Under the pieces are notes generated by a model, which was given only the letters and a program-made list of their open reading frames with translations, was not told where the DNA came from and ran no database searches. The position numbers and the translations under genes were made by a program. This document shows positions 4,339 through 51,370 of a DNA stretch of 63,164 bases, one piece after another. Each line of letters begins with the position of its first letter. The stretch's first letter is position 1. The DNA lies in the IMG/VR virus record IMGVR_UViG_3300022166_000001; one strand, given 5' to 3'. This DNA is from a virus.

Positions 4339-4709
4339 GATTAGTCGTTTGTATGCTGCTCTCATTTAACTATGGTGAGTTAAGAGTACAATCTAAGTTT
4401 GATTCTTATAAAAGAGAACAAGCAGAACTAAACCTAAAACAAAACAAAGAGCATGAAGCTCTTGTTATCAAAAACAAGCAGGAGAAAGAAGATGAGATTC
4501 GTAGTATTAATGCTCGTCATGCTTCTATCCTTAGTAGCTTGCAGCAGCGTCCCACAAGAGAACAAGCACAAACTCTACCCGTTGTCAGCTCAGGAGCAAG
4601 AAGCACTGGACAACAACTATTTAGAGAGGATGCAGAATTTCTTATCGGGGAAGCTACCCGAGCTGAAACCCTAAAACAATCCCTTATCGAGTGTCGTAAG
4701 ACCCCGTAA
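4320..4709 (+). CDS. i-spanin (Rz-like)
   Basis: N-terminal TM (IVGLVVCMLLSF) followed by a charged coiled-coil region. Directly follows the endolysin and contains an embedded +1 lipoprotein ORF. Confidence 0.6.
   Translation: MYKYIVGLVVCMLLSFNYGELRVQSKFDSYKREQAELNLKQNKEHEALVIKNKQEKEDEIRSINARHASILSSLQQRPTREQAQTLPVVSSGARSTGQQLFREDAEFLIGEATRAETLKQSLIECRKTP
4492..4674 (+). CDS. o-spanin (Rz1-like lipoprotein) embedded in the i-spanin gene
   Basis: GGAGAAAGAAG precedes the ATG. MRFVVLMLVMLLSLVAC carries a lipobox Cys. The ORF lies entirely inside 4320-4709 in another frame. Confidence 0.65.
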   Translation: MRFVVLMLVMLLSLVACSSVPQENKHKLYPLSAQEQEALDNNYLERMQNFLSGKLPELKP

Positions 4710-4726
4710 TCGGTACCTAATAGGAA
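4707..4726 (+). promoter_or_regulatory. Phage promoter-like motif P1 (TAATCGGTACCTAATAGGAA)
   Basis: 19/20 match to the 9-copy consensus. TAA is the spanin stop codon. GGAA lies 6 nt before the phoH TTG start. Confidence 0.6.
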
Positions 4727-4732
4727 ACAATC

Positions 4733-5416
4733 TTGAAAAGAAACCAACGTAACAAGGTAAAAGAACAACAGGCTCGTCCTCGTTCTTTCCACATCCAACC
4801 TAAAACTCACAACCAAGGATTATTGTTAGACGCTATCGAGTACTTCCCTATCACAGTCACTTTAGGTGCGGCTGGTGTAGGTAAGACTTTCTGTGCAGCC
4901 TCAAAAGTAGCACAACTATTTCAGTCGGGTACATATGACCACATTATTCTCACAAGAAGTAATGTCCCAACAGGACGGTCATTAGGTTTCTTTCCCGGCG
5001 ACATTAAAGAGAAGTTAGCTCCGTGGCTACTTCCAATGATTACTGTGTTACAGAAACAATTAACACAAACTAAGTACGAGTATTTACTTGCTAAAGATAC
5101 TATCCAGTACCAACCTATTGAAACTATCCGTGGACGTTCATTTGAGAACGCTCTTATTTTAGTTGATGAAGTACAAAATATTACCATTGAAGAATTAAAA
5201 GCTATTACTACTCGCTTAGGTGAGAATAGTAAAATGGTTCTTATGGGTGATGCTTCTCAATCTGATATTGATAGAGGAACTAATATCCTTAAGTTCTGTA
5301 AAATGTGTGAGAATAACGGTATTGAAATTCCTATTGTGAGGTTCACAGTAGACGATATTGTTAGATCAGATATCGTAGGTGATTTAGTAAGGATGTTTAT
5401 TAAAGAAAAGATTTAA
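4733..5416 (+). CDS. phoH: PhoH-like ATPase
   Basis: Walker A GAAGVGKT and Walker B LILVDEVQN. TTG start with AGGAA 7 nt upstream; there is no in-frame ATG before the Walker A motif. Confidence 0.85.
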   Translation: MKRNQRNKVKEQQARPRSFHIQPKTHNQGLLLDAIEYFPITVTLGAAGVGKTFCAASKVAQLFQSGTYDHIILTRSNVPTGRSLGFFPGDIKEKLAPWLLPMITVLQKQLTQTKYEYLLAKDTIQYQPIETIRGRSFENALILVDEVQNITIEELKAITTRLGENSKMVLMGDASQSDIDRGTNILKFCKMCENNGIEIPIVRFTVDDIVRSDIVGDLVRMFIKEKI

Positions 5417-5426
5417 AGGAATACAC

Positions 5427-6968
5427 ATGGCAGAACCAATTAGCGGCTTAGGAAAGGGTGGTCTTAATAAAGATTTACCCCCTATGCTTGTGCCTCCAAA
5501 TACTTTCACGGATGGATATAATATTCGTTTTGATGATGAGAGTGTACAAACAATTACAGGTGAGACTACCTATAAAACAGTCGCTATTGCTCCTGACTAC
5601 GGTGTTCATTGGGCAAGACCAGATCAAGGGTACAATATCTTCGCTAAAAACGGGGATATTGTACGTGTAGATGCTGCAGGTAATACCTCATCTATGTTTC
5701 ATAGTACTGGTACAGAATATAATAACAGTGACTGGCAAGGTACTTTATTTAATGGAGGCTATGCAATTGTCCTTAATAATGGTACTTCTACCCCTCTATA
5801 TTGTCTATATGGAAGCTCTACCGCTGGTAGTTCTTTCCAACCCTTACCTGGCTGGAACTATACTTCAGGACTTACCGTTACAGCAAAAGTAATTAGGTCA
5901 TTAAATTATTCTTTAGTTGCAGCTAACTTAACAGTTGTTTCTGGTGGTGTAACTACTTACGCACCCGGAACTATTAGAATCTCTGTGCAAGCCGCTACTG
6001 GTGCTATCCCTACTGTATGGCAACCCGGCTTAACTACTGACACAGCAGATGAATTTGAATTATCATCTACATCACCTGTACTTGATATGATGGAACTACG
6101 TGGTAATATGTTTGTATATTCCCAAGATAGTATTTCATTAATTTCTATTGGTGCAACTACTCGTGTATCTTCATATAGTAAATCATATGGTATTTTAAAT
6201 ACAGATTGTGTAGCTGAATTTGATGGTAATCATTTTGTAGTAGATCGTAATGATATTTATATTCATAACGGTTCAGGTCAAATTAAATCTATTGCTGATT
6301 GGCGTGTAAAGAAATATTTCTTTAATGAATTAAATAGAGCTGCTTTAAATAAAGTACATATTACTAAACACCCTTATTATAAAGAAATTTGGATTAATTT
6401 CCCTGAAGGTAATTCTGCTGTTTGTAATGAAGCTCTTATTTATAATTATAGAAATGATACATGGTCAAAGAGAGTATTACCTTCATTGACATATTCATTT
6501 ACTGGTCCACAGAATATTAATAATACTTTCCTATATTCAAAAGAAGTAGTATATATGTGTACTAATAGTACTCAAACATTAGTTACTGATGATGGATATT
6601 TAATGTGGAATGGCACTGCATTAACTTCTTTTACTTCTTATGTTGAAAAACTAAAGATGAATACAGGTGATATTACAGGTAGTTCTTTAATTAGTTCTAT
6701 TTACCCTGTGTTTGATAAGGTACCTAGTAACGCTACTATTACAGTTCGAATTAAAGGTCAAAATAATTATGTTGATTATGCTGACTTATCAACTGATGAT
6801 CCTAACTTAAAAGATACTTTTGTATTTCAACCTAATAATGAGAAGTCACAAGGTTATAAAGTTGACCCTCGTGTTAATGGTCGTGTATTAAATTACCGTA
6901 TTACTTCAGATGGTCCTTGGAGACTTGCTTTAATTGCTGTTGATGCTAAACAAGCAGATCGGAGATAA
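5427..6968 (+). CDS. Virion structural protein (tail/tubular candidate), 513 aa
   Basis: Long ORF in the late operon with an AAGGA RBS. I recognise no motif. Confidence 0.5.
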   Translation: MAEPISGLGKGGLNKDLPPMLVPPNTFTDGYNIRFDDESVQTITGETTYKTVAIAPDYGVHWARPDQGYNIFAKNGDIVRVDAAGNTSSMFHSTGTEYNNSDWQGTLFNGGYAIVLNNGTSTPLYCLYGSSTAGSSFQPLPGWNYTSGLTVTAKVIRSLNYSLVAANLTVVSGGVTTYAPGTIRISVQAATGAIPTVWQPGLTTDTADEFELSSTSPVLDMMELRGNMFVYSQDSISLISIGATTRVSSYSKSYGILNTDCVAEFDGNHFVVDRNDIYIHNGSGQIKSIADWRVKKYFFNELNRAALNKVHITKHPYYKEIWINFPEGNSAVCNEALIYNYRNDTWSKRVLPSLTYSFTGPQNINNTFLYSKEVVYMCTNSTQTLVTDDGYLMWNGTALTSFTSYVEKLKMNTGDITGSSLISSIYPVFDKVPSNATITVRIKGQNNYVDYADLSTDDPNLKDTFVFQPNNEKSQGYKVDPRVNGRVLNYRITSDGPWRLALIAVDAKQADRR

Positions 6969-6970
6969 TA

Positions 6971-7816: not shown

Positions 7817-7825
7817 GGAGAATCT

Positions 7826-21746: not shown

Positions 21747-21794
21747 AAAAACCCCTATTAGGAATTATCCTAGTAGGGGTTATTTTTTTTTTTT
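21747..21794. terminator. Bidirectional intrinsic terminator at the convergence of the two arms
   Basis: ACCCCTATTAGGA-atta-TCCTAGTAGGGGT stem of about 13 bp (21751-21780), flanked by an A-run on the left and a long T-run on the right. Confidence 0.85.
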
Positions 21795-24379: not shown

Positions 24380-26247
24380 AGTTCGCATTGACCAGCTGTG
24401 CAAGCCAACATTTGAGCACCTTCTACATTGTCACGGTCTTCGATAAACAATTCCCAATCGATTGAGGGTAGTGTATCTTTCAAACGTTTGTACTCGGAGG
24501 AATCAATATTCTCGTATGGCGCTTGGCGATATGTACCGCCGTCATCAGGTAAGAAGGAGACTCCGGTGCATTCATCAAAATGCTTATAAACCCATGCACC
24601 TACTTCAGGCCACTCGTGTTCTTTGACCGAGATAGTAACTGAGGGCTTATGCTCACACCAATTTCTTTGGTAGGCCAACCAGATCTCAAGATGTTGAATA
24701 GCAGTTAAGTCTTCACGAGTAAACCCGGGTGAACGCATAGGGAAGCTAAACACAGCTGTCTGGTCTGGCTTCATTACGCAGTCTTCATTAGGGATACCTT
24801 GAGAGATCAAGAACTGAGTCAATGGGTCTTTCTTATCTTGACGAATACGGCGAATGTAGTATGGGGCATGACCTGCATGGATGCCACTAGATGTCAATGT
24901 CAACTGAGACACTGTACCTTCTGGCTTAACACAAGTAATAGCTGCAGACTCAGGGATACCTAAGATACCAGCCCATTCCTTGTTAGTCTCACGGGCTACA
25001 TCACGGAGTTCTGATAGCACTGCATCTAGGTTAAAAGCTTCTCCACGGAGGATAGCATTATCTAGAATACCTGTCATAGATACACCTAGTAAACGTTCTG
25101 CTTCTGTATTCTGTTTCCAGATATCACGTAGGTAAGGGAAGTCAGTCAAGGTAGACTGCATAGTACCCATGATAGTAGCAAAGCGAACCTTCAGTTTGAG
25201 TGATTCAAGGGTATCTTCTGCTTCAACTACAATGGTAGAGAGGTTACAGAACTGATATGGCTTAAGGATAATCTCTGAGCAAGGGTTAGTACCGTACTGT
25301 ACGTCTTTTGCTCGGCGACCCCATTTAGCAGCTTGTACTTGAGAAGCTTCACGGTTGAAGATACCACGTTCACCTGAGTGACTGTTGTAAATATCTAACC
25401 ATTCCTTCATGAACTCACCGACAGATGGTTTAGTCTGGTATACTGCTGAGTTATTAGCTAAGGCACGTTCGCCAAAGCCTTTCCACCATTCACCAGCCTT
25501 AGCGGTAGCATGGTCACGGTCAGACAAGTCACCTAAGGAGATCATAGCTGAACGGCGTACACCACCAACCACTACTACTTCACCAATCTTACACATGATG
25601 TCGTGTGCTTCGATGTTCTTTAGCTTACGACCCTTAGCCTTAGTGAACTTCTTAACTGTGTAGTTAAACAAAGATACCAAAGGCTCTGGACCACTAGCAC
25701 GACCACCAAAGGTTTTCAGTGGAGCACCTGCTGGACGTACCTTAGATACATCCCATGTAGGAATAATACCTTTGTATAAGCATGCTACGAGTTCTTGGAA
25801 GGCATAACACCAACCTTCTTTGCTATCCTCTACAACAATGATATGTTCTGATTGATGTAGCTGAGGTACGACAGGAAGTTGTTGGGTATATTGAGACTCA
25901 CATGAGAAACCTACACCAGTACCACATAGTAAGATGTACATCGCCTCATCGAAACAGCGGGGATGGTCTACAGGTAGGTAGCTACAGTTGTAAGCTGCTA
26001 CGTGAGTCCTGCGGAGTGCCTCACCTGCAGTCATAATTGAGCGCATTGAGGGAAGGGTACTTAGTGATTTAATTTCTTGGTTTAACATACCCCAGATGCT
26101 GTCTGTGGTATCTAATTTATCTGCTAATTGTTCCTTAAAGAAGTCTGTCCAGCGGTCTGCTGTTTCGTCCCAGTTTTCACGGCGCTTTTTCTCAGGGAGA
26201 TAGCGAGCGTATCTTGATTTTGCAATCAGTTCTTGGTAAGAGTTCAT
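24376..26247 (-). CDS. nrdJ: Ribonucleotide reductase, class II (B12-dependent) type
   Basis: 623-aa single-chain RNR. The N-terminus YARYLPEKKRRENWDET is typical of phage NrdJ, and GTNPCSEI is the active-site motif. Confidence 0.85.
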   Translation of the reverse strand: MNSYQELIAKSRYARYLPEKKRRENWDETADRWTDFFKEQLADKLDTTDSIWGMLNQEIKSLSTLPSMRSIMTAGEALRRTHVAAYNCSYLPVDHPRCFDEAMYILLCGTGVGFSCESQYTQQLPVVPQLHQSEHIIVVEDSKEGWCYAFQELVACLYKGIIPTWDVSKVRPAGAPLKTFGGRASGPEPLVSLFNYTVKKFTKAKGRKLKNIEAHDIMCKIGEVVVVGGVRRSAMISLGDLSDRDHATAKAGEWWKGFGERALANNSAVYQTKPSVGEFMKEWLDIYNSHSGERGIFNREASQVQAAKWGRRAKDVQYGTNPCSEIILKPYQFCNLSTIVVEAEDTLESLKLKVRFATIMGTMQSTLTDFPYLRDIWKQNTEAERLLGVSMTGILDNAILRGEAFNLDAVLSELRDVARETNKEWAGILGIPESAAITCVKPEGTVSQLTLTSSGIHAGHAPYYIRRIRQDKKDPLTQFLISQGIPNEDCVMKPDQTAVFSFPMRSPGFTREDLTAIQHLEIWLAYQRNWCEHKPSVTISVKEHEWPEVGAWVYKHFDECTGVSFLPDDGGTYRQAPYENIDSSEYKRLKDTLPSIDWELFIEDRDNVEGAQMLACTAGQCEL

Positions 26248-26717
26248 TGTTTAATTGTCCTTTGTAAAATTTGTTTTCCAGCAGTAACCATGCGTTTTCC
26301 GGTTACGCTTTTGTTTGATGAATTAATATTGAGTATGTCAGGTATTTCATAATACCTTTTACCACCTTCAAACAATTCGTTTGCAAGTATTGCTTGATCA
26401 GGTGTAAAGGATTTACAATAAAATTTATCTGGGTTACCTAATCTATTATAAATAGGTTTAACTTCTTTAATTAAATTTAACTCTAAATCAAGTGCATGAT
26501 CTTTAGTGAGTAAAGTATGAGTTACTTTTGCAATATCACCCATAGTGAATCCTTGCTCATAAAGATTACTAATCCACATTGAATGAGCAGGACTACGGTG
26601 ACTCCCTGAAGAAGTGCCTGTGGCCCATGCTCGACTTCCGGTACCCATACCAATGTAAACAATTTCACCTGAATCAGGATCAACATGTTGGTACAGGTAG
26701 TATAATTCTTTTATCAT
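26244..26717 (-). CDS. GIY-YIG homing-endonuclease-like protein (the longest ORF extends to 26732)
   Basis: LYYLYQHVDPDSGEIVYIGMGTGSRAW. ATG 26717 has an AGGAAAA RBS. Free-standing between the RNAP and RNR genes. Confidence 0.55.
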   Translation of the reverse strand: MIKELYYLYQHVDPDSGEIVYIGMGTGSRAWATGTSSGSHRSPAHSMWISNLYEQGFTMGDIAKVTHTLLTKDHALDLELNLIKEVKPIYNRLGNPDKFYCKSFTPDQAILANELFEGGKRYYEIPDILNINSSNKSVTGKRMVTAGKQILQRTIKQ

Positions 26718-26735: not shown

Positions 26736-26755
26736 ACGGTATTAGGTACCGACTA
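26736..26755 (-). promoter_or_regulatory. Phage promoter-like motif P3 (TAGTCGGTACCTAATACCGT on the minus strand)
   Basis: The first 16 nt are identical to the consensus; the 3' GGAA is replaced. Intergenic, between the RNAP gene and the GIY-YIG gene. Confidence 0.5.
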
Positions 26756-26799: not shown

Positions 26800-29001
26800 T
26801 TAGCAAAAGAAATACTTTGAGTTATAAACGTCTTGGAGGTCTAAACTTCCTGTTTCAGGTTGAGCAAAAGTGAATGATTCTTTATTCTCCATGAGGGTAT
26901 CTTGGAGGGTGTTAAAGAAGTTCTCTGTGTCATACTGAGCAATGAAGTTCATCTTAGTTACTTCTTGTAGAAAATCCACTTCATCAGCGTGGGTACTAAA
27001 AGAATCGTGAACTGCACCAAAACTACCATTGAAGCCAACAATAGTGTTAGCCATATGAGCAGCATCATAGGAATGTACCACATTAGGGCTAATACCCGAA
27101 GCAAAACTCCTACGGCATGGTACTTTTTCCCCAGTTTCTTTATTGAGGACATCCACTTTAATAACGTGCATGATACGACCGTCTTTATTTCCCGTAATAC
27201 CTCGTATCGTACCTCGCTGTTTGCGTTCGTGCTGAAGATAAGCTTTGTAAACCACAGGGAAGCCACTAGGAGTGTGCCAAGTAAGGTTATTTCTACCGGA
27301 GTTAAGTTCATGTTCTGCAATCTTCTGTAAGTATTTAGTTGTTTTAAGTGGACCAGCACATACAGTGTTGATTGCTTTGATTAGGTTACCTGCAAGAGTA
27401 TCACACTGATCCTGATCAATGTTATACTTGACAGTGAAACCTTCTACGTGACAATCATCATACATGTTCTTGGCGATACGTTGTTTACCTGCTGAGTAAG
27501 CACGAGTCATAGAGCCTCGTTTAGCAATACCTTTACGGATATGCTTCATAGGCATCTGCTTTTCTTCAAACCATTCAGGCATAATTGTGATGAGTTCTTT
27601 AGCAACAGCTACATAGAAGTCTTTTTGGATAGGAGTAGGTACTAAGGACACTAATGTACCTGCTTGCTTATCTTTGGACATAGCTGCAAGATGCTGCCAG
27701 CCGTTATTAGAACCATCAATAGGGATAGGGAACCCTGACATATACTCTTGACGTAACATCTTAGCTACTTTGTACCCTTGAATCTCTAAACAACAAGCTA
27801 GTAAGCTATATGGCTTTTCAGCTGACATGTCAATACGTTTCTGCTTGGCAATCTCCATTAAGAAGGTCATGTTGTTATCAACCCAAGCAGCACGATCATC
27901 TAAGGTCATCTTGTCTAAAGAGATAGTATCAAGACCTTCTTCTTGTAGATAAGCTTTGTAGTCAGTCTTAAAGTAGCTTGGGATTTCATCAATGTTGAAT
28001 GATGTATTGTAGCAAGCTGCTGTATGTACCTTTAACCAGAAGAAACCTTTTTCACTGACATGCTTTTTGTTAGCGAATAAAAAGAGACTACGGGCTAAGT
28101 CACTACCTTGGAACTCAAGGAATGATTCAGCATAGTAGACTCGTCCACGATAGTCACAAGATACTTCTTGGTAGAAGGTCTGATCATTAACTAATCGTGC
28201 TTTCTTTAGTACCTGATTGTATTCGAAGTACTTACTAAGCATACGTTGTAGCTTAGGGTCTTTCTTACCCATGAACTTAGTACCGTCTAAGTGGTTAAGT
28301 TTCTTAGGTAAGTTAAGGTTCTCATGGTGAATGTTGTATACAAAGATTTCACCATTCTCATCAACCAAGTCAAGAGTTTCTGAAGGGTATGTATGCTCCA
28401 TAGCCTCTAGCACTGGTAGATTAAGCTTCCAAGGCTGTTGGCGTAATGTCTCTAGACTCTTGATGAATGGTTTGTCTAGGTACTCATGGAACAAACGACT
28501 GTTAGACCAGCCCTTAATGAACGGTTCTTTAGTAAGGTGACTATACAAACCAGTGATAGGTAATAACGGTTCAAATGATGTGCCGATTAACGTGGGCTTA
28601 AGATCGTCTGTCTGGTTAACGATACGTACCATGTATGGAGCCTTACGACCATCATACTCACGGAAGATATCGATTAGACCGTCTTGGAGGAATGTTTCAA
28701 GCAGAAGGTCTCCAAGAGATAAAGTTGATTTGATATTATGCTCGTCCGTGCCAATAGCTCTTGCAATTCGCTTCCCGATAAGGTCAGAGGCGAAAGTAAG
28801 CTTAACTGACGCAGAGTGTGTTGCATTTTTGTTACGGATACAGTAACGCAGCAAGGTGTCCCACGATTCATTGATAAACCTTTCTAAGTCGTATTCCCAT
28901 GTAGGGTGATGTGCAAGGAGTCTAGCACCCTCATTATAGATCTTATCTGAGTTTAATACTACCTTGGATACACGTTCAGTAAGATATTGTGTTGGATTCA
29001 T
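26800..29001 (-). CDS. T7-like single-subunit DNA-dependent RNA polymerase, 733 aa
   Basis: DYRGRVY (T/DxxGR), PIDGSNNGWQHLAAM (motif A), RKGIAKRGSMTRAYSAG (motif B) and GAVHDSFSTH (motif C). Confidence 0.9.
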   Translation of the reverse strand: MNPTQYLTERVSKVVLNSDKIYNEGARLLAHHPTWEYDLERFINESWDTLLRYCIRNKNATHSASVKLTFASDLIGKRIARAIGTDEHNIKSTLSLGDLLLETFLQDGLIDIFREYDGRKAPYMVRIVNQTDDLKPTLIGTSFEPLLPITGLYSHLTKEPFIKGWSNSRLFHEYLDKPFIKSLETLRQQPWKLNLPVLEAMEHTYPSETLDLVDENGEIFVYNIHHENLNLPKKLNHLDGTKFMGKKDPKLQRMLSKYFEYNQVLKKARLVNDQTFYQEVSCDYRGRVYYAESFLEFQGSDLARSLFLFANKKHVSEKGFFWLKVHTAACYNTSFNIDEIPSYFKTDYKAYLQEEGLDTISLDKMTLDDRAAWVDNNMTFLMEIAKQKRIDMSAEKPYSLLACCLEIQGYKVAKMLRQEYMSGFPIPIDGSNNGWQHLAAMSKDKQAGTLVSLVPTPIQKDFYVAVAKELITIMPEWFEEKQMPMKHIRKGIAKRGSMTRAYSAGKQRIAKNMYDDCHVEGFTVKYNIDQDQCDTLAGNLIKAINTVCAGPLKTTKYLQKIAEHELNSGRNNLTWHTPSGFPVVYKAYLQHERKQRGTIRGITGNKDGRIMHVIKVDVLNKETGEKVPCRRSFASGISPNVVHSYDAAHMANTIVGFNGSFGAVHDSFSTHADEVDFLQEVTKMNFIAQYDTENFFNTLQDTLMENKESFTFAQPETGSLDLQDVYNSKYFFC

Positions 29002-30612: not shown

Positions 30613-30780
30613 TTAGTTCCAGTCTCGTTCTTCACGAAGCTCACGTAGGAAATTTCTGCGGTCACTTGCTTGACGTTGGGTTTGTTTCTTTTCTTTGAAT
30701 TTGTTTTTGAATTCATCCTTTAATGAGACCTCATCCTCATACTGGACATTCTTGATTGGTGGTTTAAATTTCTTACTCAT
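30613..30780 (-). CDS. Small basic hypothetical protein (the longest ORF extends to 30822)
   Basis: ATG 30780 overlaps the upstream stop by 8 nt. Lys/Arg-rich. Confidence 0.4.
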   Translation of the reverse strand: MSKKFKPPIKNVQYEDEVSLKDEFKNKFKEKKQTQRQASDRRNFLRELREERDWN

Positions 30781-31423
30781 TTTCTTTACGTTTAGCCCAA
30801 GATGCTTTTTGAGCTGCAGCAATAGCAGCCTTATGCGCTTCAGTTTTAGTTTTCCCTTTACCTGCTGCAGACATTTTTGCTTTTACAGTATCAGGGATGA
30901 CTTTTCCTTTAGCTGATTCAGACATTTTAGCTCTTACTTCAGGCCGTTTAGAGCTGTTATTGTCGCCTCGTTGCCACTCACTCATTTTACGGCGAGTTTC
31001 TTCTGAGAGTTGTTCTTTAGCAATGAACTTAATATTACCAATAGCTTGGTTGATGTAGGTACGTTCACCTTTATCATCAACAGCATGCAATACTCTTGCC
31101 GCCCATTGCAGTTCTACTTCAGCTGATACTACACCAGCGCGTGTATCAAACAATTCTACAATTTCAAATGTGAAGTATTCAAGACCATATTTTTTAATAG
31201 CTTCTTTGACATATACAGACGATGTTTTATAGGTATTCCAATCAGATTCTTTTTGCTTAGTTTTCTTACCGAAGTTGGTATAGAAAAACTTACGACCAAT
31301 GTACTTCTTTTGGTATTCAGGATGAGTACAAGTAACTAAGTATACAAAACCGAACTTATTATTCGGTGTCTGGAATAGTTGACCCTGATACATCCAAGGT
31401 GTTAGTGGTTTCTTTGTTGCCAT
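30773..31423 (-). CDS. GIY-YIG homing endonuclease with NUMOD3-like repeats
   Basis: FGFVYLVTCTHPEYQKKYIGRK, plus C-terminal repeats SEETRRKMSEWQRG, PEVRAKMSESAKG and DTVKAKMSAAGKG. Confidence 0.7.
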   Translation of the reverse strand: MATKKPLTPWMYQGQLFQTPNNKFGFVYLVTCTHPEYQKKYIGRKFFYTNFGKKTKQKESDWNTYKTSSVYVKEAIKKYGLEYFTFEIVELFDTRAGVVSAEVELQWAARVLHAVDDKGERTYINQAIGNIKFIAKEQLSEETRRKMSEWQRGDNNSSKRPEVRAKMSESAKGKVIPDTVKAKMSAAGKGKTKTEAHKAAIAAAQKASWAKRKENE

Positions 31424-35831: not shown

Positions 35832-35851
35832 TTCCTATAAGGTACCGACTA
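35832..35851 (-). promoter_or_regulatory. Phage promoter-like motif P4 (TAGTCGGTACCTTATAGGAA on the minus strand)
   Basis: 19/20 match. TAG is the stop codon of the upstream gene, and GGAA acts as the RBS for the downstream ORF. Confidence 0.6.
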
Positions 35852-36157
35852 GGGTTTGAAGTCTTTCAATAAGATTGCTCGTTCAGAAAACATTTGTAGA
35901 GTACTACATTTGTTGTCATATTTCTCGCGTTCTTTAGGTGTCATTGGGCGATAACCGTATTTACCTTCTTCTAGAAGATCAAATACTTCATATGGATTAC
36001 CATACAAACCATAAGAACGTTCTATCGGGTGCGCTTTAACTTTTCCATTAACAATATCTCTGAATTGATACACATTCATAGATGCACTACGTCCAACAAT
36101 AGTTGGGTAAGCAAAGTAGTCACCTACATTTACTTCTTGTCCAAGAAAATCTTTCAT
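35849..36157 (-). CDS. Hypothetical protein, 102 aa
   Basis: GGAGAC RBS; clean ORF. Confidence 0.55.
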   Translation of the reverse strand: MKDFLGQEVNVGDYFAYPTIVGRSASMNVYQFRDIVNGKVKAHPIERSYGLYGNPYEVFDLLEEGKYGYRPMTPKEREKYDNKCSTLQMFSERAILLKDFKP

Positions 36158-37345: not shown

Positions 37346-37951
37346 TTACTTTCCTGTTAGGTTGTGTGACATATTATAGTATAGATGACTCTTCTTAGCT
37401 TGGAGTGTGATCAAAAGTTGAGTCTCTAATTCCAACATCTCCTGATCAGTACCATAGGCTAAGATTGTACGGATGAATCTTGAGGGGCATTCATTGTACT
37501 CTGCGATAAGGCTTTCACTGCTGCAGACATATCCATCATCAGCTGTTCCCTTGTGCTTTCCGATATACTTTCTATCGGTGTCCTTGCAAATCCACAAGTA
37601 CACAAATGACTCACCGCTATTGCTGTAGGCGTTAGTCTCGGCAGGGACTTCGACATTGTATTCTCCCTTGATATGGTCTTGCCATATTTCTTTCACATAA
37701 GCAACCATAGGTTTACCCTTAGGTGCTCGCCACATTACTACGAATGAAGGACTACCTTCGTTTTCACAGAGATGTTCATAGACCCATTTGTTATGGAGTC
37801 CTGTATACTCAGTGTCACCGATAGTAACCTTCACCATAGACTTACCTGAGTCAGAGGTATACTCTTCAACTTCATCTACGGTACATTCGTAGATATCAAA
37901 GAGTTTATCACTACCTGCGACCCATCGTTTGACAGTCTTGATTAAGTTCAT
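37346..37951 (-). CDS. Protein with a C-terminal GIY-YIG-like nuclease domain
   Basis: FVYLWICKDTDRKYIGKHKG...DGYVCSSE...LELETQLL...YYNMSHN. Confidence 0.5.
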   Translation of the reverse strand: MNLIKTVKRWVAGSDKLFDIYECTVDEVEEYTSDSGKSMVKVTIGDTEYTGLHNKWVYEHLCENEGSPSFVVMWRAPKGKPMVAYVKEIWQDHIKGEYNVEVPAETNAYSNSGESFVYLWICKDTDRKYIGKHKGTADDGYVCSSESLIAEYNECPSRFIRTILAYGTDQEMLELETQLLITLQAKKSHLYYNMSHNLTGK

Positions 37952-38351: not shown

Positions 38352-38903
38352 CTAGTCGCATTTTAATTTACAGTTGTCTAAGTGCCACCGTTTCATATTT
38401 AAAAGGTCTCCTTCTTTATTACAGTGTGGACATTTAATTTTTGATTTACGCATGTCAGTATTGACATTGTTATTTGTTGTTAATTTAACTCTAGAGATTC
38501 CTGTAGCAATGGAAGCTTCTCTTAGAGATTTGTATTCTATACCATTAACTGTAATTGGTTTAGCTGTTGCATATATAGTTGGATCTCTACCCTCTAGTAC
38601 GGCTTTTACTATACGTTTATAAGATAATCCTAGAGCCTTTTGAGCTGCAGCTATTGATTCGTATTCAATATTATTTACTGTAATTGATTTTGAAGTCACT
38701 AGTTTGCTAGCTAATATTCTAGCTTCTTGGTTAGATATACTACCTTCTAGACATTTCCATGCAATATAGTCTTGGGGTTTACCGTAAATTTCGTATAGTT
38801 TTTTATGAGCTAATGCGTGTTCTTCTACAGTTATGGGTGCTGTTAAATTCCATTCATCATTTGTACCACCCATGTGTTTTGGGATTATATGGTGACGGTG
38901 CAT
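38352..38903 (-). CDS. HNH homing endonuclease with repeated DNA-binding modules
   Basis: HRHHIIPKHMGGTNDEWNL...HALAHKK, plus two repeats: ITVNNIEYESIAAAQKALGLS and ITVNGIEYKSLREASIATGIS. Confidence 0.8.
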   Translation of the reverse strand: MHRHHIIPKHMGGTNDEWNLTAPITVEEHALAHKKLYEIYGKPQDYIAWKCLEGSISNQEARILASKLVTSKSITVNNIEYESIAAAQKALGLSYKRIVKAVLEGRDPTIYATAKPITVNGIEYKSLREASIATGISRVKLTTNNNVNTDMRKSKIKCPHCNKEGDLLNMKRWHLDNCKLKCD

Positions 38904-43778: not shown

Positions 43779-44312
43779 TCAGAAGTCTGAATCATCGTGA
43801 GTAGAAGGTGTAGAGCCACCATCTTCATCATCGAAGTCAACAAAGTTACCACTCTTTGGTTCGTATTTAACGAGGTCAGTTACTTGTACTGCAGTGAGCA
43901 TTACAGAGGTACCTTCTTTGGTTACAACACCTTTGGGTGTCTTGATTTGGTAGTCTTTTAAGAATACCATGACGTTACCTGTAGAGCCGTTACCGATAGA
44001 CTTAGGGTCTAATGGTTGTTTATTGGAGTCAACAATACGAACTGGTGCTGCTGGTGAACCATCTTTCTTTTCGGCTTTCTTCTTGAGGTTAATAGATACT
44101 TTACCTGTATCTTTACCGTCTTTATCTTTAACTGCTTTAACTTTACCGAATACTTCGAGTTCTGCAGCACGCTTCTTAGGCACAGCAAGGCTGATTTCCC
44201 ATTGGTCAGTACCGAAGGGGCTAACTGGTTTAGCTGGATCGAGCTTAGCCCAGTTGAGTTCAACGTTTTTGATGATTTCGTTGCGGCCTTCGTTGTTGTT
44301 TGCTTGTGTCAT
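43779..44312 (-). CDS. Single-stranded DNA-binding protein (T7 gp2.5-like organisation)
   Basis: 177 aa with an acidic C-terminal tail ending DFDDEDGGSTPSTHDDSDF. Lies in the replication module. Confidence 0.65.
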   Translation of the reverse strand: MTQANNNEGRNEIIKNVELNWAKLDPAKPVSPFGTDQWEISLAVPKKRAAELEVFGKVKAVKDKDGKDTGKVSINLKKKAEKKDGSPAAPVRIVDSNKQPLDPKSIGNGSTGNVMVFLKDYQIKTPKGVVTKEGTSVMLTAVQVTDLVKYEPKSGNFVDFDDEDGGSTPSTHDDSDF

Positions 44313-44357
44313 TTTGATTTCCTTTTGGAAGATAGTTTACGTTTAGATGAAATTTAC

Positions 44358-44377
44358 TAGATGGTACCTAATAGGTA
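44358..44377 (+). promoter_or_regulatory. Phage promoter-like motif P6 (TAGATGGTACCTAATAGGTA)
   Basis: 17/20 match. Plus-oriented, 58 nt upstream of the only plus-strand gene inside the minus arm. Confidence 0.5.
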
Positions 44378-44435
44378 ATGGTGTTGTTTTGGTTTGTGCC
44401 GAAGGCTCCTTACAAAGTTTTAAAGAAAGAATTTT

Positions 44436-44861
44436 ATGACAGAATCACAATCACAAACAGGTTACCCTGAGTATGAGCGTTCAACTAAAGGGCGTAGTGT
44501 TCACCCTAATTCGTTAGCTAACCTTAAACGACTTACACCTGAGACCGCAAGAGTTAATCAAGTTAAGTCAGTAGAAGCTAAGAAAGCTAACATTGCAGCT
44601 CGTGAAGCAATGAAACTTAATGCTAAGCACTTTCAAGAGGTCATGGATGAACTTCCTAAGTTATCCAGCTTAGACATTATGAGAATGGCTATTCACAAAG
44701 CTATTGCTGAGGATAATTACGAGGATGCTGCAAGGTATGCTGCTTTATTAGCAGAATATGAACAACCGAAGTTAGCCCGTATTGAACAGACTAACACTAA
44801 TCGTACTGCAGACCTTTCAGATGAAGAGTTGCAAGAGATTATTCGTAAAGAAGGTTTATAA
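44436..44861 (+). CDS. Hypothetical protein, 141 aa, reverse-oriented (weak resemblance to small-terminase/DNA-binding proteins)
   Basis: Basic N-terminus with HPNSLANLKRLTPE, a helical middle and an acidic LSDEELQEII tail. Has its own promoter motif and terminator. Confidence 0.55.
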   Translation: MTESQSQTGYPEYERSTKGRSVHPNSLANLKRLTPETARVNQVKSVEAKKANIAAREAMKLNAKHFQEVMDELPKLSSLDIMRMAIHKAIAEDNYEDAARYAALLAEYEQPKLARIEQTNTNRTADLSDEELQEIIRKEGL

Positions 44862-44869
44862 AAAAAAAT

Positions 44870-44898
44870 AAAGAGAGAATCGTAATGATTCTCTTTTT
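44870..44898. terminator. Bidirectional intrinsic terminator
   Basis: AAAGAGAGAATC-gtaat-GATTCTCTTTTT, flanked by an A-run and a T-run. Confidence 0.75.
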
Positions 44899-44917
44899 TA
44901 TTTCTACTTAGAGATGT

Positions 44918-44937
44918 TCCCTATTAGGTACCGACTA
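44918..44937 (-). promoter_or_regulatory. Phage promoter-like motif P7 (TAGTCGGTACCTAATAGGGA on the minus strand)
   Basis: 19/20 match. TAG is the stop codon of 44935-45120. It fires straight into the terminator 19 nt downstream. Confidence 0.55.
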
Positions 44938-45120
44938 AGCGATATGCCAAGTTACGGTTGCTGTTTTAGATGAACCAAGTTCATAAAACAACATATCTTC
45001 TGCGTCAACTTCATTATCATGGTAGTCACGATATTGTTTGTATGCTGCTTCAGGACAGTTACCGAAAGAGACGTCAGCGCTACGGCCCCATTCATCTTCT
45101 TGTTTCATGCACATCCACAT
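44935..45120 (-). CDS. Hypothetical protein, 61 aa
   Basis: ORF packed directly after 45123-45449. Confidence 0.5.
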   Translation of the reverse strand: MWMCMKQEDEWGRSADVSFGNCPEAAYKQYRDYHDNEVDAEDMLFYELGSSKTATVTWHIA

Positions 45121-45713: not shown

Positions 45714-45714
45714 A

Positions 45715-46248
45715 TTAAGCTCGCTTTTCGAGTTCAGCTAACACAGCTGCTTTAGCTAGGGCAAGTTCTTGGAGTTGTTTAACTACATAGGCATTTAATC
45801 CTGCATCAAGGTTGGACAGTTCGGTTTGTTTGTTTTTGATTCGTACAAGAAGCTCCATGAGGCTATCAGGGCAAGTCTTTTCAATGACTGCTCCGAATAC
45901 GATAGTTTGAGTGGTGATGATAGGTGTTGACATAGTGTTCTCCAAGGTACAGGGTTGAGTATTGCTGATGTTGACTTCAGCACAAGGGTTGGTTATTTCC
46001 CGAGCTACATAGTAACAGCAACTAACGGGGTCAAAAGTTAGAAGGTTTAGGGCTTTAGCTTTTATGCAGATAGAGTTAACAGAACGCTTTAGTTCTTTTG
46101 CTATTTGTAGAGATGACAGATTACCTGCATTGATTTCTACGCGTAGTAGCTGCATGTCATAGTTTGACCATATTTTACCATGGTTTTCTCTATGATTCGC
46201 TTCATCCTTCTGGATGATTAGGTATGTTGCGAATATGACTTGGTTCAT
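45715..46248 (-). CDS. Putative HTH DNA-binding protein
   Basis: WSNYDMQLLRVEINAGNLSSLQIAKELKRSVNSICIKAKAL is an HTH-like segment. Confidence 0.45.
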   Translation of the reverse strand: MNQVIFATYLIIQKDEANHRENHGKIWSNYDMQLLRVEINAGNLSSLQIAKELKRSVNSICIKAKALNLLTFDPVSCCYYVAREITNPCAEVNISNTQPCTLENTMSTPIITTQTIVFGAVIEKTCPDSLMELLVRIKNKQTELSNLDAGLNAYVVKQLQELALAKAAVLAELEKRA

Positions 46249-47891: not shown

Positions 47892-47892
47892 T

Positions 47893-48237
47893 TTAGTACT
47901 CCTTAGTAACGATATAACCACATTCTTTGTATGAAGATTCTTTAACCCTGAAGTAATCTTCAAAATGATAAGTTTTCATTGTTACACTACCGCTATTACT
48001 AGCATATTTTTGTAATCCACTCCAGATACTATCAGTTAGACGTCTTGTTGGACCTCCACCAGTAATATTTCCACAGATAGCAACAATAACATCTAACTGT
48101 TCTTGAGTTAACTCTACTTCATATACTTGTTCCTCTTTCTTTACTAGTTCTTCTACTTCTTTGTAAGTAGTAGTAACCACTGGAACCTCTTTGATAACCT
48201 TCTCATAGGATACATTGGTGTATTGATTAACATTCAT
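47893..48237 (-). CDS. Hypothetical protein, 114 aa
   Basis: First ORF downstream of motif P8. Confidence 0.55.
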   Translation of the reverse strand: MNVNQYTNVSYEKVIKEVPVVTTTYKEVEELVKKEEQVYEVELTQEQLDVIVAICGNITGGGPTRRLTDSIWSGLQKYASNSGSVTMKTYHFEDYFRVKESSYKECGYIVTKEY

Positions 48238-48327
48238 TGATTAACCTCTTTGATTAAAACTCTTTGATGATATTCTCTTAATTAATACTCTATTATTAAT
48301 AATCACCTACCTAACGGAGGAGGAAAA

Positions 48328-48347
48328 TTCCTAATAGGTACCGACTG
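48328..48347 (-). promoter_or_regulatory. Phage promoter-like motif P8 (CAGTCGGTACCTATTAGGAA on the minus strand)
   Basis: 18/20 match. Intergenic, 90 nt upstream of ATG 48237. Confidence 0.55.
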
Positions 48348-48365
48348 TGAAGTTGTTGATTTATA

Positions 48366-48725
48366 TCACTTTTTAGATTTAGACTCCTCTTTTTCGATGA
48401 TTTCATCTAACTTAGAGTTAACGGCTTTAAGGAGCTTAGAACCAAACTCTTTAGCTTCAGGTGTCTCGACAACACGCTCAACAGCGTAAGCACCAACCAT
48501 CAGATACATGGTTTTCTTAGCAGGTAAGAATACCATTAAGAAGGCTGTGACGATGATTACGATAAAAGATGCTTTAAACATTTTCTTTTCGGTATCACAC
48601 TCACGCCATGTAGTGGTTGCTAAGGTCATTCCTGAGATGAATGCTATGAAAGCAGCAATGATGAAACAGATTAATGACAGACATGCGAGGTTTTCGATGA
48701 CGTCAATGAGGTAGATTGTCCACAT
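48366..48725 (-). CDS. Membrane protein, 119 aa (2-3 TM)
   Basis: Hydrophobic segments LACLSLICFIIAAFIAFISGM and FIVIIVTAFLMVFL. Confidence 0.6.
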   Translation of the reverse strand: MWTIYLIDVIENLACLSLICFIIAAFIAFISGMTLATTTWRECDTEKKMFKASFIVIIVTAFLMVFLPAKKTMYLMVGAYAVERVVETPEAKEFGSKLLKAVNSKLDEIIEKEESKSKK

Positions 48726-48754
48726 ATGGATGTTCCTTTAGATGTTTTTGGATG

Positions 48755-48844
48755 ATGGTCTGATGGGTATTAAGTTAGTGGTTACTAACTATGAGTGTCT
48801 GAAAGGTATGGTCTGATAGTAAGTTAGCACTCACTAACTATCAG
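48755..48844. repeat. Two tandem units of about 40 nt, each containing a 6-bp-stem hairpin
   Basis: ATGGTCTGAT..AAGTTAG-n6-CTAACTAT.AG at 48755-48795 and 48808-48844, with a 53-nt period. Confidence 0.8.
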
Positions 48845-48974
48845 CTTTTGACACCCACAAAACACTCTCCACAAACCCCGATTTCTCCCGAGAATCTCCG
48901 CTATGACACTTCTCTGGGTATTTTCCTCTCAGAATATACCCAAGGAATGCCATAACGGTACCTTCTTGGAGCCG

Positions 48975-49202
48975 TTATTGGTGTTCCTTCTCTAGGTATG
49001 CGTCATAAGCGTATGCCTCTCGTTGGTACACTGTGAGTTCCTGTAGGTATTCTGCTAGTTTATTCTCCACTGTTGGTGCATTTACCTGTTTATCCAGTAT
49101 TTGGATGGTCTGTTGGTAGCCTTTCAGCAGAAAACATAGCACATTTACCTCTTCTGAGGACATTTCTAGAGAGAATGTCCCTCTATGCTTGGTTAGTCGC
49201 AT
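48975..49202 (-). CDS. Hypothetical early protein, 75 aa
   Basis: AGGAG RBS. Confidence 0.5.
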   Translation of the reverse strand: MRLTKHRGTFSLEMSSEEVNVLCFLLKGYQQTIQILDKQVNAPTVENKLAEYLQELTVYQREAYAYDAYLEKEHQ

Positions 49203-49283
49203 GATTTCTTCTCCTGTTTTGTGTTAAACCTACGAAATCTGTAGGAAGAGCGTTGTTTCAGCTCCTCCTTTGTGTATTTCTCC

Positions 49284-49532
49284 TTAGATTCGGACGAGTT
49301 GGTCATAAGTTGCTGTGTATTCTACCATAGTTCCGTCAAGATCTACGATAGTACACATCTGTTCGAGTGCTGCCTTGGTAGAAGCATAGGCGAATGCTAC
49401 AGGACGACCCTCGACATCAGCCGACATGAGAGCGTTACATGCGAATTCTTCGAGAGATTCGTAGAGAGCGTCCCAAGAGTCCATTCCGAACTGTTCTGGT
49501 GTGAGTGGGTTGAGCAAAAGGTATTTAGACAT
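49284..49532 (-). CDS. Hypothetical early acidic protein, 82 aa
   Basis: Clean ORF with a strong C-ending codon bias. Confidence 0.55.
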   Translation of the reverse strand: MSKYLLLNPLTPEQFGMDSWDALYESLEEFACNALMSADVEGRPVAFAYASTKAALEQMCTIVDLDGTMVEYTATYDQLVRI

Positions 49533-49558
49533 GATTTTCTCCTTGAAATGTCTGTGGA

Positions 49559-49888
49559 TTATTCAGCTGACTCGATGTTGTAGAACCAAACCTTTGGATC
49601 GTTACCACCAGCAGCAATAAAGCGTACCAGATCACCATTGTCGTAGGCTTTCTGGAGGTCTTTAGTGAGTGCCTTCAATGTCTCAGTGTGAGTGATACGA
49701 TCGATACGGCATTGACGCTTGTATCCATCAGAGCCTGTCGCTTCGATACTACGAGTGATCTCATTGAACGAGAGTTCTTTGATCTTCACAGGATTAGACA
49801 TACGATCTTCTCCCAATGGGTTGTTAGTAGAGAACAATACATCGATCTTGTTGATAGATGTGAATTTAGGTGTGAAAGCTTTAGTCAT
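49559..49888 (-). CDS. Hypothetical early protein, 109 aa
   Basis: AAGGAAA RBS. Confidence 0.55.
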   Translation of the reverse strand: MTKAFTPKFTSINKIDVLFSTNNPLGEDRMSNPVKIKELSFNEITRSIEATGSDGYKRQCRIDRITHTETLKALTKDLQKAYDNGDLVRFIAAGGNDPKVWFYNIESAE

Positions 49889-49969
49889 AATATTTCCTTT
49901 GAGTTGATGATTGTTGCTTGGTACCTACCCCAAGTGGTCTCTCCGTTATAAGCCCGAGAAGAGCATTAC

Positions 49970-50080
49970 TCAGTAGTAACGAACTACATCTACCATCGCT
50001 GGTAAATATTTGTTTAGCTCATTGACATCATTTGTCTTGGTGATCAAACGACCTGTCTGTTTAAAGTACACGTAGTACAT
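49970..50080 (-). CDS. Micro-ORF, 36 aa
   Basis: The ATG lies 1 nt after the upstream TAA, with an AAGGAGAG RBS. Confidence 0.3.
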   Translation of the reverse strand: MYYVYFKQTGRLITKTNDVNELNKYLPAMVDVVRYY

Positions 50081-50081
50081 A

Positions 50082-50249
50082 TTACTCTCCTTTGAGGTTG
50101 TAGTAATCAATGGTTTGTTGCAATGCGATCTCTTCGGCTTGGTCACGATGCATGTTAGCTTGGTACTCTAAAATACCAGCACGTTCTTCAAAGAACTCTC
50201 TTTGGACTTCATTCAAGGCTGATACCTTGATTTGGATCATTAACGACAT
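50082..50249 (-). CDS. Hypothetical early protein (the longest ORF extends to 50294)
   Basis: ATG 50249 is preceded by GAGGAG. Confidence 0.5.
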   Translation of the reverse strand: MSLMIQIKVSALNEVQREFFEERAGILEYQANMHRDQAEEIALQQTIDYYNLKGE

Positions 50250-50425
50250 ACGATCTCCTCTGCTTCGGTTAGTAAGATGAATAGTTGTGCACAAGCAGTG
50301 ACACCACTAAAGAACAAGACACCAACCAACAAGAGGTCATAGCCTTGTTGCTCAAGAGCGATCATAGCGTAGTGTACACAGTTAGCCCAGAACAATAGCA
50401 CTGAGCCGTGGATGAGGTATTTCAT
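50240..50425 (-). CDS. Small membrane protein (the longest ORF extends to 50467)
   Basis: ATG 50425 is preceded by GGAGAC. Two hydrophobic segments. Confidence 0.5.
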   Translation of the reverse strand: MKYLIHGSVLLFWANCVHYAMIALEQQGYDLLLVGVLFFSGVTACAQLFILLTEAEEIVCR

Positions 50426-50493
50426 GTTGGTCTCCTTAGAACATGACAGAGCAAGAGCGCTCTCCACAGGGCATAACCCTGTAGGCAGGACTC

Positions 50494-50865
50494 TTAGGCA
50501 ACAACGAGATCCTCAGCAGCCATGACCTCGTCGATCAAAGCAACGACAGCAACAGTACGACCACCAGACCAGATGGTAGAGACCAGCTCCTTGAGCAACA
50601 GGTACTGAGCAAGAGGAACATCACCAGCATGACCGTGAGCAGACGGCTCAGCCAACGCCCACAGGAACACCTTCAGGTCAGCAGCATAGCGATCACGGTC
50701 CTCAGCACGGAGAGGACACAGGTCAGACGACCAGTGCTCAACACGCCAACCACTGGAAGACGAGCGACACAAGCGGTGGTTGGACAGGCGAACAAACCAC
50801 ATACCAACACGGAACAAAGAACCAGTCAACACAGACCAAGAGCGGAACAAGACACGAGCAAACAT
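50494..50865 (-). CDS. First early gene candidate, 123 aa (upstream in-frame starts exist, up to GTG 51168)
   Basis: GGAGG lies 5 nt before ATG 50865. The C-terminal 100 aa look like ordinary protein sequence, while the N-terminal extension lies in the adenine-free tract. Confidence 0.45.
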   Translation of the reverse strand: MFARVLFRSWSVLTGSLFRVGMWFVRLSNHRLCRSSSSGWRVEHWSSDLCPLRAEDRDRYAADLKVFLWALAEPSAHGHAGDVPLAQYLLLKELVSTIWSGGRTVAVVALIDEVMAAEDLVVA

Positions 50866-51168
50866 AGGAACCTCCAAAGAAAGAAAGAAAGAGAACAGGT
50901 CAAGCAGCCCAGAGAGCCACAAGAGAACCACACAAACAGAACGAGTACACAGCACCAACCCAAAGAGGAAGGACAGACCACACGACACCCGCCACAACAG
51001 CGAGCAAACAGAAGCAGCAACCAACAGTGAGAAGAGAAAGAAGAGCAGACACAGGACACCTCCAAGAGAGAACAGAGACAAGGGACGACACGCCCGAGCA
51101 ACCACCACGACAGCCCAAGCAAAAGCAGGGGGGGACACGGAAGGAAGCACAAGGGCGAACCAACACAC
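50803..51168. other. Three-letter tract: only 7 T in 366 nt of the plus strand
   Basis: Manual count. The T positions are 50826, 50865, 50873, 50900, 50946, 51028 and 51061. Confidence 0.95.
50900..51052 (-). CDS. Speculative 50-aa hydrophobic peptide encoded almost without adenine
   Basis: GGAGG (51063-51059), a 6-nt spacer, GTG 51052, and TGA at 50902-50900. It may be an artefact of composition. Confidence 0.2.
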   Translation of the reverse strand: MSALLSLLTVGCCFCLLAVVAGVVWSVLPLWVGAVYSFCLCGSLVALWAA

Positions 51169-51350
51169 TTTAATCCTTTTTCACACACAAAGAAACTTTA
51201 CCCCACAGACTTCCTCCCACAGACACTCCCCAGAAAACTTCACTTTCCGATTCTTTCTGAAGAGTGGTAGGGGTACCCAAAAATTATAGTATATTTTCTC
51301 CCAAGAAAATAATAATAAATATTACTATGGGCTTTTATAAACGAAAGTAT

Positions 51351-51370
51351 TAGTCGGTTCCTATTAGGAA
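51351..51370 (+). promoter_or_regulatory. Phage promoter-like motif P9 (TAGTCGGTTCCTATTAGGAA)
   Basis: 18/20 match, 24 nt upstream of the terminase ATG. It heads the whole late arm. Confidence 0.6.

Follow-up and report, generated by a model that had tools for sequence, protein, structure and literature searches.

Phage promoters of the T7 group (T7, T3, SP6 and K11), which are read by single-subunit RNA polymerases (RNAPs), are asymmetric elements of ~20-23 bp that occur in many co-oriented intergenic copies, with an A/T-rich block ahead of the initiating GG and a purine-rich initial transcript. In phiKMV- and KP34-like phages the RNAP gene is found at the end of the DNA-metabolism block and not in the early region, and their promoters, whose consensus is unrelated to that of T7 and which were found genome by genome, are few, weakly conserved and mostly associated with late genes. 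Single-subunit RNAP promoters have been mined systematically for T7-, phiKMV-, KP34- and Syn5-like enzymes, the phiKMV-like and KP34-like ones being treated as separate categories, and 741 of 1757 genomes were left without a definite prediction (Zhu et al. 2025, PMC11880802). Here we examine a viral DNA stretch of 63,164 nucleotides (nt) from IMG/VR (record IMGVR_UViG_3300022166_000001; hereafter the window), in which a first-pass annotation had pointed to nine copies of a 20-base T7-promoter-like motif (consensus TAGTCGGTACCTAATAGGAA, or TAGTCGGTACCTAATA followed by GGAA when split at the presumed start). Our computational analysis makes it very probable that these copies serve as promoters and are read by a T7-type single-subunit RNAP of 733 amino acids (aa) that the phage itself encodes. 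They share with the T7 group the length, asymmetry, co-orientation and intergenic placement described above and, if +1 is the first G past TAATA, would also resemble it in the A/T-rich block, GG and purine-rich initial transcript. In contrast to the phiKMV/KP34-like phages, the window has nine strongly conserved copies distributed over middle and late genes; no close sequence relation to that group was seen, and the best cultured match is phage CRP-7 with 32% RNAP identity.

All nine copies were re-verified for coordinates, strand and sequence, each matching the consensus at 16 to 19 of 20 bases (Table 1). In a position weight matrix (PWM) scan of the window, a check that the first-pass annotation had itself proposed, the nine copies scored 25-34 versus 8.8 for the next site, with no intermediate-scoring copies in between. 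Allowing at most three mismatches to the consensus recovered seven copies in the window against 0 in 100 dinucleotide shuffles, and copies 23733 and 26736 have four mismatches each. Under leave-one-out scoring, eight of the nine beat the best match of 100 Markov-simulated genomes; copy 26736 scored 16.4 (mean simulated maximum 12.2), a low value because its difference is confined to the last four bases, the first 16 being exact consensus.

The copies had been described as all intergenic, and this stands for eight of them, which have at most 3 nt in coding sequence, but copy 23733 overlaps the last 14 nt of a thioredoxin-like open reading frame (ORF). Non-coding DNA amounts to ~7.6% of the window by a rough ORF-based estimate, and the chance of eight of nine copies falling within it is about 1e-10. 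Every copy is co-oriented with the next gene downstream, as had been claimed, and the reported economy of the motif was also borne out: its TAG/TAA is the stop codon of the upstream gene at 4707, 35851 and 44937 (the coding overlap there consisting of the stop codon only), and its GGAA is spaced like a ribosome-binding site (RBS) 6 nt ahead of the starts at 4733 (PhoH-like) and 35825 (a 48-aa ORF). Likewise, the PWM scan found no copy in 48366-50865, the first ~2.5 kilobases (kb) of the minus arm, and the RNAP gene does lie downstream of copies 48328, 44918, 38921 and 35832. A scan for the sigma-70 consensus (-35/-10 hexamers, 16-18 bp apart) reported none of the nine copies, and sigma-70-like sites were not enriched in the window (33 vs 43 expected, 43 vs 52 and 49 vs 54).

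Searching IMG/VR with the window RNAP protein yielded 146 related stretches, the best 80 of which are 66-96% identical; a search seeded with an alignment gave these best 80 loci again. The motif is retained at the same positions in ~100 uncultured relatives whose flanks have diverged; it is kept in ~75 IMG/VR contigs (RNAP identity 66-96%), and in further metagenome contigs down to 53%. For eight of the nine window sites at least one relative has the same downstream gene, the shared contexts being before the ribonucleotide reductase (RNR) gene, the 35413 homologue, the tRNA cluster, terL, the single-stranded DNA-binding protein (SSB) gene and ORF141, together with two contexts seen once each (before the homologues of 38352 and 5427). 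Co-oriented sites recur immediately past the RNAP stop codon (in nearly all relatives), 2-3 kb beyond it facing tRNA genes whose 5' end lies 4-9 nt past the motif, ahead of a small ATGAAAAAG ORF, the first of the deaminase/DNA-polymerase block, ahead of terL, and as a convergent pair around an opposite-strand ORF. Across 149 unique canonical instances, which were gathered by a score threshold loose enough to admit an instance with one change at whatever position, information content rises from ~0 to >1.5 bits at positions 1-2 and drops after position 21, the flanks being random. Because these edges are sharp and the threshold tolerates any single change, the motif is a sharply bounded block of 20-21 bp. 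All 149 instances have C at position 10, which would be -7 if +1 is the first G past TAATA, and the usual bases at positions 17-21 are G, G/A, A/G, A and A; with this assumed start site the sequence fits a purine start. Tandem duplicates 22-23 nt apart also occur in some relatives, for example before terL (L018 3639/3661; L025 1447/1469, 3373/3396 and 3449/3471).

The 733-aa protein matches Pfam RNA_pol (E 3e-56) and, by phmmer, T7 RNAP. Its AlphaFold model (predicted local distance difference test, pLDDT, 90.2) retrieved T7 RNAP complexes as the top Foldseek matches: 3e2e ranked first by E-value, and 1cez, in which T7 RNAP is bound to a promoter, ranked first by template-modelling score (0.73). 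Identity to T7 RNAP in the structural alignment is 17-18%. The T7 alignment places residues equivalent to catalytic D537, K631, Y639, H784 and D812 in the window enzyme. Between the conserved TPSGFPV and SGISPN, the segment that in T7 RNAP forms the specificity loop, lies a hairpin that is modelled as strands 590-596 and 611-617 with a flexible tip of lower confidence; by HMMER, M611 aligns with T7 Q758 and R609 with T7 R756. The first-pass annotation had spoken of two RNAPs and had left it undecided which of them reads the motif. Only one phage RNAP gene was found, in a scan that covered 35 or so larger ORFs: three large late proteins (1001, 1264 and 1180 aa) gave no Pfam, PDB or RNAP-motif signal and look like internal or ejected virion proteins (lysozyme domain; virion structural PHROG), and ~25 further larger ORFs had replication, ligase, endonuclease or tail annotations or none, with no second RNAP or sigma factor among them. 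Fold, conservation and hairpin co-variation all point to the 733-aa enzyme as the reader.

The co-variation is clearest in one clade in which every identified copy has been rewritten to CAGYTG(T/A/G)CCCCTAATA, at a minimum of five distinct sites per genome and with the convergent pair included. (A 14-mer search for this variant motif matched mostly unrelated contigs, and only contigs of the phage family were used.) Motif positions 5, 7, 8 and 9 are changed, and the clade, a monophyletic group, sits deep within the canonical lineages. Variant and 63 canonical RNAPs are separated by 11 fully diagnostic columns of 733, four of which (Q595H, K606P/T/S, D607K and M611R/N) lie within 17 otherwise invariant hairpin residues (hypergeometric P 6e-5). 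In a wider protein search the hairpin KQRGTI(K/R)GIxGNKDGR(V/I)(M/T)HV was kept, with few exceptions, down to ~53% overall RNAP identity. Residues 595, 606, 607 and 611 co-vary with promoter positions -8 to -12, residues 595, 606 and 607 changing in the variant clade along with motif positions 5, 7 and 8; co-variation of -8 to -12 with the hairpin is shared with T7-like enzymes (PMC11880802).

Residue 611 was also replaced elsewhere in the family. In a separate lineage (P0072) N611 is the sole hairpin change, and the post-RNAP copy, TAGGTGTCCCCTAATAGAGA, has C at position 9; in another separate lineage (P0088) Q611, again the sole change, is found together with three copies (TAGTCGGACCC, TAGTCGGTCCC and TAGTTGGCCCC), all with C at position 9. 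The basal member of the variant clade (P0044) has R611 and three GGCCCC copies. Among the 149 canonical instances position 9 (-8) is A in 118, G in 21, T in 10 and C in none. Three independent replacements of M/T611 by a polar residue (R/N, N and Q) each accompany C at position 9 in all identified copies, and lineages at 53-58% RNAP identity that keep M611 retain GGTACC. Among T7-like RNAPs a coupling links Q758 with position 10 of a promoter matrix of 21 bp, and R746 is coupled to C at -7 in 91% of pairs (PMC11880802); matrix position 10 corresponds to -8 when the matrix is taken to start at -17. The coupling between -8 and residue 611 is thus of the kind seen between -8 and Q758 in the T7 family. 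We consider it an evenly balanced proposition that this uncultured phage family, which is probably of freshwater origin, re-tuned its RNAP/promoter code at least three times (611 to N, Q or R with A to C at -8, in all identified promoters), with GGA(A/G) serving at the same time as an RBS in leaders of 7-10 nt that start with the Shine-Dalgarno sequence.

In the mechanism that we propose, the RNAP would bind TAGTCGGTACC, the motif's upstream half at about -16 to -6, as duplex DNA. Its beta-hairpin 590-617 would reach into the major groove and read bases at about -8 to -12, TAATA (-5 to -1), which is A/T-rich, would be melted, and transcription would start at the first G of GGAA to give a purine-rich initial transcript. 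The copy at 51351 (P51351) would serve the whole late arm, with P4707 acting as an internal booster, and P48328, P44918, P38921, P35832, P26736 and P23733 would be successive co-directional promoters for middle, replication and tRNA genes, while P44358 would serve the lone opposite-strand ORF. Host RNAP would presumably read the ~2.5 kb of motif-free early genes. The first phage RNAP molecules might come either from host transcription or from the virion, after which the four upstream copies would make RNAP expression self-reinforcing. The motif itself, with its statistics, placement, conservation and co-variation with the RNAP loop, is shown by the sequences, while the start nucleotide, the division of labour between host and phage RNAP and the feedback loop are the parts of this scheme that we infer. 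Both sets of transcripts likely end at the hairpin 21750-21781, and the hairpin 58505-58525, placed like T-phi, is a probable transcript end as well.

Several observations weigh against this reading or against parts of it. About 22 kb of the minus arm, with four copies of the motif, come before the RNAP gene, and sigma-70-like sites are not enriched (the 43 vs 52 expected given above). Transcription from P44918 would run within 25-45 nt into an AT-rich bidirectional hairpin, and then antisense through ORF 44436-44861 to the SSB gene. In most relatives the post-RNAP copy has ACC, not AGG, past TAATA, and a T7-type enzyme would be expected to initiate poorly on CC at the presumed start; the placing of +1 at the first G past TAATA is itself drawn by analogy. 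With regard to the loop, the equivalence of M611 and T7 Q758 is plausible but uncertain, because the hhalign register differs from that of HMMER and the window loop is ~11 residues longer than T7's. As to the co-variation, the variant clade represents a single evolutionary event, the N611 lineage P0072 contributes only one copy, and a lineage with a remodelled loop (P0087, L324) gave no recognisable motif. Finally, one relative (L073; IMGVR_UViG_3300020050_010600) combines a variant RNAP with one canonical promoter before its tRNAs (~5300-5450). This genome is a mosaic, with an RNR module 86-91% identical to the variant phages, a tRNA module closest to the canonical ones and the canonical promoter at the junction, and its post-RNAP copy is of the variant type, matching its variant hairpin. 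L073 is demonstrably a recombinant, in which the promoter travelled with the tRNA module.

Other explanations of the motif have to be weighed against promoters read by the phage RNAP. It might be the site of another DNA-binding protein, for instance a transcription factor of the phage or a sigma-like one by which host RNAP is redirected, and not be read by the phage enzyme at all. Placement and co-orientation would also fit an activator, and two short palindromes within the motif (GGTACC and CCTAATAGG) can suggest a dimeric binder; these are not conserved in relatives, however, where GGAGCC, GGTGCC, GGTTCC, CCTAATACC and CCTAATAGAAA occur, and the idea of a dimeric binder was dropped because of this variation. 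Moreover the element is asymmetric, strictly oriented and without a -35/-10 or -24/-12 layout, and the ~35 larger ORFs scanned include no sigma factor, the only regulator-like match being a marginal one of 45715-46248 to phrog_323 (E 6e-4, 'transcriptional regulator, D5-like'). Since the promoter changes also track residues of the RNAP specificity loop in three independent lineages, we hold this explanation to be very unlikely. An element acting at the level of RNA, such as an endonuclease processing site or a translation-initiation site in transcripts begun elsewhere, appears even less probable to us. All copies are on the sense strand, GGA(A/G) often lies 5-8 nt ahead of a start codon in the manner of a Shine-Dalgarno sequence, and processing of tRNAs would be plausible; yet the distance to the next start codon is 58-90 nt for several copies, and others directly precede tRNA genes, so that the role is not purely translational. 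The most strongly conserved bases are upstream of GGAA, no Rfam family matches the motif, and an RNA element would have no reason to co-vary with the hairpin of an RNAP that reads DNA.

It is barely credible, lastly, that mobile cassettes left the copies behind as scars or carry them as cargo, without a common regulatory role. Two copies do face endonuclease-like genes that stand alone (26244-26717 and 38352-38903), the ORF between the pair 44358/44918 looks inserted, and the canonical promoter of L073 moved with a recombined module. Most copies, however, precede core genes (terL, RNR, tRNAs and the DNA-polymerase block), and in 23 relatives the post-RNAP copy adjoins the RNR gene directly with no endonuclease between. 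Because these relatives have the promoter without the endonuclease, the GIY-YIG-like gene of the window looks like an insertion between promoter and RNR, and the endonucleases would have inserted behind existing promoters. Cassette mobility would also leave unexplained a concerted genome-wide change together with the RNAP loop.

Four traits of a single-subunit RNAP promoter system were found, namely a cognate RNAP gene, an asymmetric multi-copy element, intergenic and co-oriented placement, and co-variation with the hairpin. The narrow T7/T3/SP6 consensus was not matched: aligned at the presumed +1 with the T7 consensus, only 10 of 20 bases are the same (-15 A, -12 C, -11 G, -7 C, -3 to +2 ATAGG and +4 A), and the motif forms a separate promoter class in the manner of the phiKMV-, KP34- and Syn5-like ones (PMC11880802). 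T7 phi1.1A lies 26 nt past the T7 RNAP gene, and window copy 26736 likewise follows its RNAP gene. In contrast to the T7 group, the window RNAP is 150 aa shorter in addition to its low identity and longer loop, four of its own predicted promoters precede its gene, which is placed far inside the middle region, and the ~63 kb genome has two divergent arms, encodes a portal of the SU10 type and does not have the Autographiviridae layout.

The closest cultured relative, Roseobacter phage CRP-7 (MK613349), was detected by protein-level searches only. Its core genes are syntenic with those of the window, and its identities are 58% for terL, 52% for portal, 53% for capsid and 46% for primase-helicase, besides the RNAP value given above. 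A megablast of the 7.4-kb replication/RNAP block of the window against 50,697 phage records gave zero matches. CRP-7 carries no copy of the window motif but a different one, TATAGTCC(C/A)(C/T)TATTAAAAGG, in five copies, which are intergenic, co-oriented and kept in 41 marine relatives (positions 2025, 7146 and 14763 on the plus strand, 38262 and 57212 on the minus strand; contigs L001/L002), and these are presumably the promoters of its 819-aa RNAP. The CRP-7 motif shares AGTC...CCTAWTA...GG with that of the window and resembles GTCCCCTAATA of the variant clade, and its RNAP has N at the position equivalent to M611. On the other hand, the spacing and the 3' half (TATTAAAAGG) differ, as do the promoter sites, one of which is before and not after the RNAP gene. 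The paper on CRP-7 (PMC6918029) does not mention promoters, and the CRP-7 motif is apparently undescribed.

The window motif string is likewise absent from indexed papers. The RNAP/promoter pair is new, although the kind of element is already known from the T7, T3 and SP6 promoters, and for phage specialists the existence of such promoters is expected rather than surprising. What they provide is a transcription map for a widespread uncultured phage family, with ~250 related RNAP genes in IMG/VR and 694 proteins of a metagenome collection that match the RNAP at an E of 1e-20 or better. The lineages in which residue 611 changed offer independent natural replicates for a rule by which one specificity-loop position reads the -8 base, and a single-subunit RNAP of compact size, together with its 20-bp promoter and the natural variants in the specificity of both, is raw material for in vitro transcription and orthogonal circuits. 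If the code was indeed re-tuned as considered above, nature would have supplied in this family a set of RNAP-promoter pairs that are compact (733 aa) and orthogonal to one another, and the Q758/-8 rule would extend beyond the Autographiviridae.

The window behaves as a complete, circularly permuted genome of a podophage-like phage with two divergent arms. The late arm, on the plus strand, runs from terL (51395) to 63164 and on from 1 to 21740; terL is followed by genes for a portal of the SU10 type (Pfam E 1e-127), a scaffold, the capsid and the tail and, past the window end, for three very large virion proteins. The minus arm extends from ~50865 down to 21793, and its products are a gp2.5-like SSB, RNA and DNA ligases, dCMP deaminase, family-A DNA polymerase, exonuclease, primase-helicase, the 733-aa RNAP, a B12-type RNR, endonuclease VII, the thioredoxin-like protein and four tRNAs. 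Coordinates are collected in Table 1.

Table 1. Predicted promoter copies, the RNAP gene and associated features of the window.
Feature	Position	Strand	Remarks
Predicted promoter copy TAATCGGTACCTAATAGGAA	4707..4726	+	Inside late arm; TAA = stop of ORF 4320-4709
PhoH-like gene	4733-5416	+	TTG start, GGAA of copy 4707 6 nt ahead
Predicted promoter copy TAGCTGGAGCCTAATAGGAA	23733..23752	-	tRNA-Met 8 nt past motif, first of four-tRNA cluster
Predicted promoter copy TAGTCGGTACCTAATACCGT	26736..26755	-	44 nt past RNAP stop codon; CC replaces GG at presumed start
Genes downstream of copy 26736		-	GIY-YIG-like ORF, then RNR gene
Predicted promoter copy TAGTCGGTACCTTATAGGAA	35832..35851	-	TAG = stop of ORF 35849-36157; 48-aa ORF 6 nt on
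Block of copy 35832 past the 48-aa ORF			dCMP deaminase, DNA polymerase, exonuclease, primase-helicase and RNAP genes
Predicted promoter copy TAGCCGGTGCCTAATAGGAA	38921..38940	-	Upstream of homing-endonuclease-like gene 38352-38903
Predicted promoter copy TAGATGGTACCTAATAGGTA	44358..44377	+	Precedes ORF 44436-44861 (141 aa), sole plus-strand ORF within minus arm
Predicted promoter copy TAGTCGGTACCTAATAGGGA	44918..44937	-	TAG = stop of ORF 44935-45120; next minus-strand gene is SSB, 43779-44312
Predicted promoter copy CAGTCGGTACCTATTAGGAA	48328..48347	-	First copy of minus arm, past ~2.5 kb of copy-free early genes
Predicted promoter copy TAGTCGGTTCCTATTAGGAA	51351..51370	+	24 nt ahead of terL start (51395); heads late arm
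733-aa T7-type single-subunit RNAP gene	26800..29001	-	Proposed reader of the motif
RNAP hairpin codons, residues 590-617 (QHERKQRGTIRGITGNKDGRIMHVIKVD)	27151..27234	-	Homologous to T7 specificity loop; M611 = 27169-27171
Bidirectional terminator-like hairpin	21750..21781	.	14-bp stem, A-rich 5' flank, T-run behind; arms converge here
Terminator-like hairpin with T-run	58505..58525	+	Just 3' of major-capsid homologue (57375-58490)

The 3' half of the promoter motif recurs in the hairpin at 21750-21781, as CCCCTATTAGGAA (minus strand CCTAATAGGGG), and a hairpin of this type is also found in a relative (L072) near 16343. The AT-rich bidirectional hairpin between the convergent pair is situated at 44870-44898, within the interval 44313-44937, and the pair around the 141-aa ORF is kept in many relatives, the variant-promoter clade included. 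The two endonuclease-like ORFs directly behind promoter copies are GIY-YIG-like (26244-26717) and of the NUMOD1/HNH type (38352-38903), and further endonuclease-like ORFs are present at 30773-31423 and 37346-37951. For a third RNAP lineage (L285-L322, ~705 aa) a k-mer repeat search found no shared promoter and returned only RBS-like and coding repeats; in these contigs the arm often ends right past the RNAP gene, where a conserved bidirectional hairpin, AAAACCCCACAAGGTTTCCATTAAGGATTCCCTGTGGGGTATTTTT, is found.

An unusual composition was also observed in the early leader of the window (50871-51180, minus strand, reaching ~50500), which is positioned between the late promoter and the first early ORF. 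Its early-sense strand has only 4.2% A, with A-free runs of 107, 81, 45, 38 and 32 nt, and A makes up only 9% of the first early ORF. An early-sense strand free of A can have no stop codon, and no palindromic restriction site with A or T is possible in it. The A-poor composition beside the terL promoter is kept in relatives, in which A-free runs reach up to 269 nt and A falls to 0.3% over 300 nt.

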